Part shown: in pieces, positions 22,447 through 24,890 of the stretch
How the letters are laid out: every line of letters starts with the position of its first letter
Numbering within the stretch: the stretch's first letter is position 1
Source: a virus
IMG/VR virus record: IMGVR_UViG_3300021399_000006
Coordinates: 14,128 to 78,127 of that record
Direction: 5' to 3' (one strand)
Length of the DNA stretch: 64,000 bases
Translations under genes and position numbers: made by a program
Notes under the pieces: generated by a model
What the model saw: only the letters and a program-made list of their open reading frames with translations
The model's database searches: none
Told to the model about the DNA's origin: nothing

Positions 22447-23022
22447 TTTATACCACCTTTCTTTTGTGCTTTTGTTTTCCTTTGATGATTATATTATATC
22501 AAAGGGCTTGGCTTTTGTCAAGCCCTTTTTTGATTTTTTTAAAATCTTTCTTTTAAAGCAAAACCCTTTTCATTACGAATAGCAATGTAGTCATAAGGAA
22601 ATTTTTTACAGGCTTTTTCAAAAACTTTTTCCGCTTCTTTCATAGTTGCTACTTTAAAACCGTAACGGAGAAAACCTACTGTGATGTGGAACATTTTGTA
22701 CCCCTTTCTTTGGATCGATTATTGTTTTCCTTTGATGATATAAGTATATCACACTATAGAAAAAAGTCAATAGATTTTTAAATAAAATATTGTACAAAAA
22801 AAGGATTAAAATAAAATAAATAATTATGCACTTTTCCCTCTTGACAACTGGCTGTCACATGTGATATAATGTTTCGGCCTGCAGCGGCCGCTTCCGCAGG
22901 CTTTGGAAAGAATGTTAAATTATTAACAATCGATCTTCTTTTGTACGATCGATTGTTAATAATACGCTTTGTTATAATATAATAAAAGCCTTATTAGTTT
23001 TATACTAATAAGGCTTTTATTT

Positions 23023-23265
23023 TTATTTAACGTCAACACCTTGACTTTTCAAATATGCAATTCTTGAAGGAACATATTCGTTATATCTTTTTTCAAGCTG
23101 TTCTTTTGAGTATCTCATAACATAGCTTCTATCAGCTTCTTTGTAGATACCAAGTTCAACCATTCTGTTAACCATAGCTTTCTTTGTCATTTTAAACCCC
23201 TTTCTCGATCGGTTCTTTGCTTCATTTGATAAATCAATTATAACGCTAAAAGACATATCTGTCAA
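23023..23265 (-). CDS. hypothetical basic protein
   Basis: Track ORF of 80 aa. Confidence 0.45.
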   Translation of the reverse strand: MTDMSFSVIIDLSNEAKNRSRKGFKMTKKAMVNRMVELGIYKEADRSYVMRYSKEQLEKRYNEYVPSRIAYLKSQGVDVK

Positions 23266-23614
23266 TACTTTTTTTAATTTTCAGACTATTTTTTTAATTT
23301 TCAGATAACTTTAAAATCTTCGTTTTTAAAGGGTTTACTTTGATCTTTTAACGTGTTAAAGTGTGTTATTTTTTTAACAAACAATAGCATTTTAGGAATG
23401 AAAAAATTTTTTAAAATTTTTTCATTTTTCCTCTTGACAAACTGGTTCTATGTGTGGTATAATTGTTCGGCCTGCAACGGCCGCTGGTGCTGACTAACAC
23501 AATAGAGTTTGTTTGTTAATTAACAAACAAACTCTATTACTTTAACGTATTAAAGAACATTGTTAAAACCTTAACAATCAATCTACTATGTTAGATTGAT
23601 AATAGTTTAACAAT

Positions 23615-23690
23615 GATTATTATTATTATTATTATTATTATTATTATTATTATTATTATTATTATTATTATTATTATTATTATTAATCAA
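23615..23690. repeat. (TTA)n microsatellite, about 24 units
   Basis: Perfect trinucleotide run read directly. Confidence 0.9.
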
Positions 23691-24413
23691 TTGACTTAGT
23701 TTGATTATTTATCTTATTTTGATTAGTTTGACCTAACTCAGCAAAGCCACTTTTACACATTAGCGTACTAAAGTGTTATTTTTTTAACAAGTAAAAGACT
23801 AAATCTTTAAATTTTAAAATAAGTGTTAAAAATTTAACAAGCCCGCTAATGAGCAAAAGTAAGAGTTTAGTGTGTTAAAAACTTAACAAAGGCAAGACTG
23901 TATCACTTTACCATGTTAAAGTGTTAACGTGTTACTAATGAGCAAAAGTAAGAGTTTAGTATGTTAAAAATTTAACGCTTATCAGGAAAGGTGTGAGTTT
24001 AGTGTGTTAAAAATTTAACGCTTATCAGGAAAGGTCTGACTTTTATTGATTACAGATTTATGGATTCAGAAATCTGGATACGTGTTATTGCATTAAAATT
24101 CGGCGCGCATTGGCCTGCGCGCGCCGAGCAAAACTATTAAATACAAAAAAAGACCGCCCTAAATAAAATCATACGATTTTTTAGGGCGGTCCATTCTACG
24201 CAGCGTTTATATTTAGTTTTTTGTCTCTACACAGCATTCCCAAAACTTTTCTCTCGGTATTAACGGGGGGGGTGGGTTTTTGGGAAAAAATTTTTTTGAT
24301 TTTTAAAATTGATTATGGTCTCGCCATTCCCCGTACCAAAAGTTTTTAAGTTTTCAAACAACGTACCAAAAGTTTTTAAAAATCTAAATAACGGTTCCTC
24401 GCACCAAAAATTT

Positions 24414-24890
24414 TTAAGTTTTCAAATATAATATATTATAATAATCTAAAGCATCTACTTCTTCCATAAAAAAATGAATCCCAGGAGCACATATAAACAG
24501 TCTATTATCACAAAAATCTTTTACAGAAACTTCTTCTCCAACCTTATAAACAAAAGTAGAGTCATATATAGAATGAGCCTCTTTCAACTCTCCAGTAAAA
24601 TTTCTTATTTCTAATACTTTAGCTTTATCACATCTACATTTCTTACTATCTAATCCGCTAGTTCTTTTTGCATCTTCAGGAATTTCTAATTTTATTAAAG
24701 CATAATGATTTGATTCATCAACAGCACATTTCCAACCTATAAAACTCCCAGTTGCGGGACAGGCTAAAGGCGGAAATGGAATTTCTGCTTCTTCTTCCTT
24801 TTTCTTAAAAAAAGGATATAAAGCGGCAGTTATACATGCACTAAAAAAAATAAAACTAACAATCACTATTATAAAACTAAGAATTTTCAT
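24414..24890 (-). CDS. secreted/membrane-anchored Cys-rich protein
   Basis: Track ORF of 158 aa. N-terminal hydrophobic segment. Confidence 0.5.
   Translation of the reverse strand: MKILSFIIVIVSFIFFSACITAALYPFFKKKEEEAEIPFPPLACPATGSFIGWKCAVDESNHYALIKLEIPEDAKRTSGLDSKKCRCDKAKVLEIRNFTGELKEAHSIYDSTFVYKVGEEVSVKDFCDNRLFICAPGIHFFMEEVDALDYYNILYLKT

Follow-up and report, generated by a model that had tools for sequence, protein, structure and literature searches.

Rex is an NADH/NAD+-sensing repressor, and its published binding box in Clostridia is TTGTTAANNNNTTAACAA. A motif obtained for C. thermocellum Rex by DNA affinity purification sequencing (DAP-seq) and validated by electrophoretic mobility shift assay agrees with this clostridial consensus. 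Rex comes off DNA when NADH/NAD+ rises, and the gene kinds assigned to clostridial Rex regulons include thiolase, alcohol dehydrogenase and hydrogenase. Among phages, phi29 carries sites for the host proteins Spo0A (0A boxes) and Spo0J (parS), which keep early promoters repressed, prevent replication from starting and couple the genome to segregation of the host (PMC2731898). The left terminal repeat of T5 contains conserved untranslated repeat regions that include 8 DnaA boxes and are a candidate injection stop signal (bioRxiv 10.1101/866236). Here we analyzed a 64,000-nucleotide stretch of the virus record IMGVR_UViG_3300021399_000006 (positions 14,128 to 78,127; hereafter the window), which is the early region of a ~133-kb Bacillota phage that decodes TAG as sense. 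An earlier note had proposed a palindrome- and repeat-rich region of this window as a candidate replication origin or packaging/regulatory hub. We give about an even chance to the interpretation, drawn from sequence comparison, that this region is a conserved, mostly non-coding early control hub whose palindromes form a Rex-type operator array acting as a sensor or decoy. Origin function is unsupported by the evidence in the region, and the regulatory or packaging alternative of the earlier note comes closer to that evidence.

Ten TGTTAA-N4-TTAACA sites with at most 1 mismatch were found at 22913-24020 and none elsewhere in the 64 kb, whereas shuffled sequences held a mean of 0.84 sites and a maximum of 3. 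The sites are palindromes of 16-18 bp, (T)TGTTAA-N4-TTAACA(A), and the 4-5 copies of gtgttaaaaatttaac seen by the earlier note are present as members of this larger ten-site family. Compared with the 18-bp palindrome TTGTTAA-N4-TTAACAA, all ten boxes have at most 1 mismatch in the 16-bp core and box 3 is perfect. All 14 specified positions and the spacing agree with the Rex consensus. Boxes 5-10 are spaced 41-50 bp apart, and part of them were made by a 43-bp tandem duplication. Boxes 1 and 3-10 fall within the predicted transcripts of two rightward promoters, P_A and P_B (Table 1).

The logo built from 545 sites (76 loci) is T-TGTTAA-(A W W T)-TTAACA-A; in this site set a spacer of 4 accounts for 345 occurrences, and no other spacing exceeds 6. 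Positions that had not been searched for also agreed between the phage arrays and Bacillota chromosomal sites, whereas other phyla differed. In the chromosomal/phage comparison, the values were 0.69 vs 0.75 for T at position 0, 0.58 vs 0.71 for A at position 7, and 0.52 vs 0.51 for A at position -3. Because the compared positions lay outside the search pattern, this agreement is an independent check of the Rex match.

IMG/VR was scanned for two boxes 20-50 bp apart, and the same scan with a 5-bp spacer served as the control. The paired pattern was found in 75 stretches, 22 of them with at least 2 pairs; the control returned 18 stretches, none with more than one pair. A chance expectation of <1 match for the paired pattern was rejected as too low, given the 18 control stretches. 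The phage arrays comprise 8-16 sites in 0.3-2.4 kb, mostly outside open reading frames (ORFs), and since many array loci share genes with the window, they point to one broad phage clade. In bacterial genomes the pattern mostly occurred as one pair per locus. On Bacillota/Clostridia contigs, a pair was located directly upstream of genes for thiolase, Fe-alcohol dehydrogenase, a NuoE/HydC-type 2Fe-2S protein and a class-V aminotransferase. A Rex-type motif thus stands before NADH-linked fermentation/hydrogenase genes in the Bacillota, the presumed host lineage. A search with a rex query checked against PDB 2VT2 revealed no rex homologue in the window or in loci L001-L084. GenBank records labelled 'phage' that carry Rex genes were considered as evidence of a phage-encoded Rex and set aside, as they are unrelated to this clade.

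Table 1. Features of the repeat-rich region, in window coordinates, with strand and the basis of each call.
Feature	Position	Strand	Basis or remark
Promoter P_A, CCTCTTGACA-N18-TATAAT, extended -10 (TG)	22837-22870	+	12/12 match, sigma-70-type consensus
GC-rich 5' stem-loop at predicted P_A transcript start	22876-22901	+	sequence and fold
Rex-type box 1, TGTTAAATTATTAACA	22913-22928		~+36 to +51 of P_A transcript
Bidirectional intrinsic terminator	22981-23021		18-pair stem, then T run; fold
55-amino-acid (55-aa) gene (MTKKAMVNRMVELGIY...), predicted three-helix protein	23023-23190	-	own perfect promoter, ribosome-binding site, shared terminator 22981-23021
Promoter of 55-aa gene, perfect TTGACA-17-TATAAT	23265-23237	-	sequence
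Two 20-bp A-tract repeats upstream of 55-aa gene promoter	23269-23308	-	repeat analysis
Rex-type box 2, 1 mismatch	23364-23379		between two divergent promoters
Promoter P_B, CCTCTTGACA-N18-TATAAT	23430-23463	+	consensus match
5' GC stem-loop of P_B transcript	23468-23483	+	sequence and fold
Perfect palindrome, 38 bp, centre TGTTAA/TTAACA, spacer 0	23501-23538		inverted-repeat search
Rex-type box 3	23561-23576		with flanks perfect 18-mer, TTGTTAAAACCTTAACAA
Rex-type box 4, 1 mismatch	23597-23612		motif scan
(ATT)23.3 microsatellite, 100% pure	23616-23685		in predicted P_B transcript
Rex-type boxes 5-10	23774, 23824, 23873, 23914, 23962, 24005 (through 24020)		motif and repeat scan
GC-rich hairpin, GGCGCGC stem	24100-24127		terminator-like on - strand
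Intrinsic terminator of leftward operon (genes 28819 to 24414)	24152-24191	-	A7 precedes hairpin on + strand
Module 3 core: CTACGCAGCG (24196), CTACACAGCA (24227), G8 with TGGGTTTTTGGGAAAAAA (24265-24290), 49-nt block identical in L001 (24283-24331)	24196-24331		relatives comparison
Three direct repeats CG(T/C)ACCAAAA(G/A)TTTTTAA at 24332, 24362, 24400	24332-24417		repeat search

The promoters P_A and P_B match the sigma-A consensus and read across the sites; non-coding transcripts of ~150 nt and ~660 nt are predicted. The two promoter-hairpin units described in the earlier note were confirmed (22837-22901 and 23430-23483). The P_A unit spans ~150 nt and contains no ORF. Its promoter is conserved in the near-identical strain L011, with counterpart units in the related loci L001 and L212; the P_B promoter is unchanged in L011, also has counterparts in L001 and L212, and is preceded by an UP-like A/T-tract element (23400-23422). 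The 5' hairpins of five + strand units and of relatives differ in sequence, and all of them pair. The terminator at 22981-23021 would serve two convergent units, ending the P_A transcript (~150 nt) on one side and the 55-aa gene on the other. The earlier note's statement that the region has no ORFs therefore fails at this gene and holds for ~23266-24413, the longest genuinely ORF-free stretch. Segment 23237-23308, with the promoter of the 55-aa gene and the A-tract repeats, retains 88% identity in L001.

The GTTAA-centred inverted repeats of the earlier note are also present. An inverted repeat with perfect 17-nt arms (22919-22935/22947-22963) in the P_A unit is overlapped by box 1, and a second, imperfect one lies further right at 23548-23579/23594-23625. 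The large palindrome reported there is perfect, and it is 38 bp long with 19-nt arms rather than 40 bp; because its spacer is 0, it is not a Rex-spaced site, and it has one mismatch in strain L011. The GC-rich hairpin at 24100-24127 has counterparts in L001, L013 and L212, with a T run 3' of it on the + strand in L212. It probably terminates the P_B transcript, acts as a second terminator for leftward transcription, or both. The terminator at 24152-24191 shows compensatory stem changes in L001.

The map of L011, which is 95-98% identical, is the same as that of the window. In L001/L247, L246 and L248 the flanking genes are ~80% identical and the 13-16 boxes, the GC hairpin, the terminator and module 3 are all kept, but the DNA between the boxes is barely alignable. 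L212, whose sigma-like protein is 78% identical, retains the order promoter, hairpin, boxes: a P_B-like promoter is followed by (ATT)11(TTTG)7, then by five boxes that recur exactly every 44 bp, the GC hairpin and module 3. These alignments show that the box set and its order are kept and the inter-box sequence is not. A clustered regularly interspaced short palindromic repeats (CRISPR)-like reading of the periodic L212 boxes was rejected, as the 'spacers' resemble each other. In L013+L079, the sites are spread over ~6.7 kb with genes between them. The hub of the earlier note thus survives as a conserved, mostly non-coding collection of Rex-type, predicted protein-binding repeats whose architecture recurs in strains and relatives; its designation as a replication origin is not supported.

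Related hubs also carry sites for other host proteins. At 1950-2520 of L067, 13 Rex-type boxes mix TGTTAA half-sites with TGTGAA, which we take to be the Rex-box half-site of bacilli; beside these boxes are a pair of perfect parS sites (TGTTTCACGTGAAACA) and a repeat present four times, ATTGTCTAAC. In L039, perfect DnaA boxes (TTATCCACA) number twelve and are grouped in threes, with a - strand early promoter a short way downstream of each of the four triplets. The DnaA boxes and repeats of L039 lie at 2580-2890, 4040-4720 and 1730-2080, together with a ~350-bp CA-rich microsatellite and many GTTAGTTATAACTAAC palindromes. The parS sites of L067 and the DnaA boxes of L039 indicate that the clade embeds arrays of host-protein sites in its hubs.

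If host Rex recognizes the array, Rex dimers would load on it when NADH/NAD+ is low, as in an oxidised or starved host. Bound Rex would block rightward non-coding transcription from P_A and P_B, which would oppose the leftward early operon. As the phage DNA multiplies, the sites, at least 10 per genome, would titrate Rex, and host NADH-recycling fermentation genes would become de-repressed. Either way, the phage programme would be coupled to the redox state of the host, or that state would be rewired. We hold only tentatively, as a possibility with the balance against it, the wider proposal that the TAG-recoded Bacillota phage clade keeps arrays for host proteins (Rex here; DnaA and ParB in sisters) as copy-number-dependent decoys and/or sensors, with Rex titration de-repressing fermentation or NADH/NAD+ gating infection.

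Several observations weigh against a Rex array. The spacer-5 control was not empty, and part of the 75 matches may therefore be unrelated operators. Relative to strong promoters, the boxes are depleted from -60 to +20 and peak at -80 to -200, with a lesser cluster at +20 to +100. Overlap with promoters is the classical arrangement for Rex operators; the phage boxes lie mostly clear of core promoters. Such positions are unlike those of a simple promoter-occluding repressor, so that a roadblock, architectural or decoy role fits better; judged on the motif and its placement, membership of the phage array in a Rex regulon is not established, the promoter overlap being absent. The nearest named phage, phAss-1, and several relatives lack the array: across the whole phAss-1 genome a single 18-mer site was exact, another had 1 mismatch, and module 3 was missing, so that this genome is uninformative about termini and origin. 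The array is lineage-specific, which one would expect of a feature that tracks the host. A second palindrome family, GTTAGT-N4-ACTAAC, shares the 6-N4-6 format of the boxes and is present in related hubs; we know of no host factor that matches it. The phage also encodes candidate DNA binders of its own, namely three winged-helix paralogues and the hub-embedded 55-aa protein. Because of this second family and these candidates, a phage protein could be the binder. At L213 (600-5600; sigma-like protein 62% identical) no Rex-type boxes were found, and the equivalent place holds 28 copies of TTAGTT-N6-AACTAA at a 20-bp period, kin to GTTAGT-N4-ACTAAC.

The alternative that follows from these last points is that the array consists of operators for a phage-encoded binder, a winged-helix paralogue or the 55-aa protein, which switches non-coding/antisense early promoters, the Rex match being coincidence or mimicry. 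The window does encode three small winged-helix paralogues, 12 loci have the 55-aa gene at a distance of 120-1200 bp from sites, the GTTAGT-N4-ACTAAC family of related hubs fits paralogous phage regulators, and the sites lie outside core promoters. The paralogues, of 121-134 aa (11920-12321, 15319-15723 and 17488-17853, -), combine an N-terminal helical hairpin with the C-terminal winged helix in the AlphaFold2 (AF2) model (predicted local distance difference test, pLDDT, 81) and belong to no Pfam family; ~210 homologues were found in the metagenome-derived protein collection searched. For the 55-aa protein, the protein collection yielded 15 homologues; related hubs encode paralogues of it, and its fold is predicted with confidence (pLDDT 95.7).

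Neither protein, however, has a specific family or fold match: the structure search with a winged-helix paralogue returned generic winged-helix matches only, and the 55-aa protein had no match in Pfam and no fold match in the PDB. A resemblance of the 55-aa protein to Rho_N/HeH-like domains was considered and received no confirmation from Pfam or Foldseek. Moreover, the 14 positions and the spacing are those of the Rex consensus, and the flank preferences are those of chromosomal sites. L013+L079, with 26 sites, has no detectable homologue of the 55-aa protein within 21-25 kb; L219, with 7 sites, has within 21-25 kb no detectable homologue of either the 55-aa gene or the winged-helix family, and that family also occurs in L216 and L217, which lack an array. 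On this evidence, we regard a phage-encoded binder as fairly unlikely.

A replication origin, as proposed in the earlier note, would have initiators bound to sites flanking an easily melted (ATT)23 tract, with P_B transcription opening or priming it, as in R-loop or transcription-activated origins. Many sites do surround a 70-bp A/T-only tract into which a very strong promoter is aimed, the order promoter, (ATT)n, sites is retained in L212 and L011, three true direct repeats occur in module 3, and sister hubs contain DnaA boxes and parS, both of which are origin-associated. Cumulative GC skew, by which the earlier note proposed to map the origin, is negative on both sides of the region and reaches its minimum at ~28-29 kb (turn ~28.9 kb), at the switch in gene strand; skew is dominated by gene strand and makes no turn at the region. 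No DnaA box with at most 1 mismatch was found in 22000-25000. No parS (TGTTNCACGTGAAACA) was found in the window, a perfect parS occurring in L067 only, and the Pfam/PHROGs scans revealed no ParB-like family.

The initiator or partition gene for which the earlier note proposed to test nearby was likewise absent from the neighbouring genes scanned with Pfam and PHROGs, which include no initiator, primase, helicase or helicase-loader gene. Its 'iterons' are not direct repeats beside a rep gene: they are palindromic and correspond to the operator of Rex, a metabolic repressor of the host. The main repeats are palindromic at 41-50 bp and direct repeats occur only in module 3, at 30 and 38 bp. The AT-rich tract is (ATT)23 here, the low-complexity tract of L039 is CA-rich, and L246 and L248 have no (ATT) run of at least 5 units; the sites of L013+L079 are interspersed with genes. 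We therefore consider an origin improbable.

Module 3 (24196-24417) is separate from the box array; a packaging signal, activator sites and true iterons are all candidate roles for it. It is single-copy and was found in at least 17 related loci. Its parts are two copies of the CTACRCARCR motif, the element G(4-9)-T-NNN-TTTY-GGGAAAA, a conserved block and 2-3 direct repeats. The earlier note counted four tandem repeats ~35 bp apart and one at 24905. We found three, with CGTACCAAAAGTTTTTAA exact at 24332 and 24362 and with two mismatches at 24400 (spacing 30 and 38 bp), and a remote copy of the core at 24906. The repeat at 24400 overlaps the stop codon of gene 24414-24890. The repeats number 2-3 in relatives as well. 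In L219, 45-140 bp separate them from the downstream sigma-A promoter of the sigma-like gene, the first of the late block, and in the window 4.5 kb of - strand genes separate module 3 from that gene.

These features bear on a further alternative, that module 3 is a cos/pac packaging signal or genome terminus whose repeats bind the small terminase, with cutting at or near the G tract. By analogy with the first-step-transfer region of T5, the repeat hub would then lie at the leading end of the genome as it enters the cell. The single-copy module with its strongly conserved core recurs at those 17 or more loci across wide divergence, it has 2-3 direct repeats and, beside a G tract, A/T tracts, and it is always upstream of the late block (sigma-like/Zn-ribbon gene, terminase), by 0.3 kb in L219 and 4.7 kb here. 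Near-identical strains differ in the length of the G tract, and the ends of many contigs fall no more than 200 nt from a site pair. Wherever it could be placed, however, module 3 is internal: in L011, in L212 at ~48.6 kb of 133 kb and in L219 at ~33.9 kb of 59.7 kb, a position that is not decisive for permuted or circularised assemblies. Contig breaks at repeats, for example inside (ATT)n, are expected anyway, and the L219 repeats stand where promoter activator sites would be. A packaging signal or terminus thus appears quite improbable.

It is very improbable that the functional products are the P_A and P_B RNAs with the palindromes acting as RNA hairpins, for example as a sponge RNA or antisense regulators: the consensus promoters, the 5' stem-loop at a fixed distance with structure rather than sequence kept among units and relatives, the clean P_A terminator and the folding of both transcripts, much stronger than that of shuffled sequences (z = -8.4 and -7.0), would suit this, but palindromic DNA yields well-folding RNA trivially, the stems keep their sequence and show no covariation, many boxes lie upstream of promoters, Rfam gave no match in the region at gathering thresholds or at relaxed E-values, and in L011 the middle of the P_A unit is swapped for other DNA in which two direct TGTTAAC-AAA-ATAACA boxes replace the inverted repeat, so that the structure is lost and the motif kept.

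The TTA microsatellite of the earlier note is the (ATT)23.3 tract, and its G8 tract is present one base further on, at 24265-24272. Both are slippage-prone spacers, as the earlier note had suspected: between the window and the 95-98% identical strain L011, the repeat number differs as (ATT)23 vs ~17 and G8 vs G6. Counterparts of (ATT)n are the (ATT)11(TTTG)7 at the same place in L212 and a degenerate tract in L001, and the G tract ranges from G4 to G9 across relatives. The (ATT)n tract falls in non-coding RNA, beginning 146 nt after the predicted start of the P_B transcript, and the G tract is in non-coding DNA. Neither occupies the position of a phase-variation switch, within a reading frame or between -35 and -10. 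A G-quadruplex reading of the G tract was rejected on inspection, because the four G runs are not kept in L011, L001 and L029. The public assembly ENA ERZ12302813 NODE_2569 (L224 1-60) begins inside the (ATT)n tract, and at least 11 IMG/VR contigs end at most 200 nt from a box pair. These ends are either repeat-induced assembly breaks or real genome ends.

With the standard code, the window contains few long ORFs, whereas decoding TAG as sense opens ORFs as long as 2981 aa in the + strand block 28972-61546, whose products include portal, terminase, virion proteins and the sigma-like protein. From ~2100 to 28900, the ORFs are small, mostly on the - strand and free of in-frame TAG. The TAG-recoded late genes occupy 28972-61546 (+), 1-2173 (-) and 6032-8030 (+), and the 2981-aa ORF has up to 71 in-frame TAGs. 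No suppressor tRNA was found in the window, where the sole tRNA is tRNA-Lys(UUU) at 15159-15232. The first gene of the late block (28972-30084, +) is labelled 'sigma factor' by PHROGs; the C-terminal Zn-ribbon part of its product also matches HNH, Lar and endonuclease VII families, and the protein could have a packaging role instead of one in transcription.

The portal is 37% identical to that of phAss-1, a TAG-recoded gut phage with Clostridia as the predicted host (PMC10607447). A metagenome scaffold of 132,990 bp carries a 100% identical copy of a window protein. The genomes with which relatives were binned are those of Bacillota, Clostridia and Lachnospiraceae, as well as RUG-named ones, which we take to be from the rumen. 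A megablast search of 22000-25500 against GenBank phages gave no match. The window contains an isochorismatase/nicotinamidase-like gene at 3522-4070 (-), and phAss-1 (OQ749652.1, 98196-101298) encodes nicotinamide phosphoribosyltransferase, phosphoribosyl pyrophosphate (PRPP) synthetase and nicotinamidase. These genes indicate that the phage group handles the NAD pool, a point in favour of the Rex interpretation.

Strong promoters are frequent in the early region. Fifteen perfect TTGACA-17/18-TATAAT promoters, both strands counted, were found at 17-23.5 kb. At 20750-22540 there are tandem units of ~250 bp, each with a perfect TTGACA-17-TATAAT promoter followed by an ORF of 50-60 aa; the -35 element is embedded in a hairpin (AAAGGGCTTGGCTTTTGTCAAGCCCTTT), and the unit is repeated many times in relatives also. 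Further + strand units of promoter and 5' GC hairpin (17369-17398, 19001-19030 and 20059-20088) run antisense into - strand early genes and have no Rex-type box. Fairly GC-rich intergenic DNA with no convincing ORF lies between early genes at 15750-16290, 17870-18420, 18700-19150 and 19900-20150. One of these stretches holds a T-arm-like GGGTCGAATCC, and ARAGORN and Rfam called nothing in them; they are possibly degenerate tRNA-like or other structured RNAs.

In half-site, 4-bp spacer and flanking T/A, clostridial Rex operators are identical to the phage boxes. Chromosomal Rex operators are single or paired and stand before metabolic genes, whereas the phage array places 10-16 sites in non-coding DNA, mostly off core promoters and with no metabolic gene downstream. 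As in iteron origins (lambda ori, plasmid oriV) and the promoter-plus-unwinding-element origins of T7 and T4, repeated sites, here predicted to bind protein, lie beside an AT-only tract with a strong promoter reading in. Unlike these, the locus shows palindromes at an irregular spacing of 41-50 bp, no skew turn, no initiator among the neighbouring genes scanned and an AT tract that is not in all relatives. The E. coli datA locus titrates DnaA, and the decoy logic would be shared: a cluster of sites, here putatively of high affinity, with no gene to regulate and an effect that scales with copy number. To our knowledge, no phage-borne decoy array for a host metabolic repressor has been described, and we found no report of Rex boxes in phage genomes in the literature searched.

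If Rex binds, a virulent phage of anaerobic gut/rumen Bacillota could read or reset the fermentation state of its host, and the array would be a directly testable DNA 'sponge' for a transcription factor. The hub with module 3 is also a conserved non-coding landmark for the uncultivated phAss-1-related group, usable for termini, origins and host links. The relative L039 resembles T5 in its DnaA-box triplets; the window differs from T5 in having no DnaA boxes, in phage lineage and in host phylum, and a terminal-repeat location is not established for it. With phi29, which together with T5 is the nearest precedent, it shares the arrangement of a virulent Bacillota phage with several sites, here predicted, for host DNA-binding proteins that report cell state, and a sister hub contains parS. 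The differences, as far as the DNA itself can tell, are a redox sensor in place of a sporulation master regulator and dense arrays in place of few sites at promoters or origins. Phages borrow host regulators in several known cases, among them LexA, Spo0A and ParB (phi29) and the DnaA boxes of T5. Phages carrying host-factor sites are thus already known, and the novelty here would be an operator array for a redox sensor.

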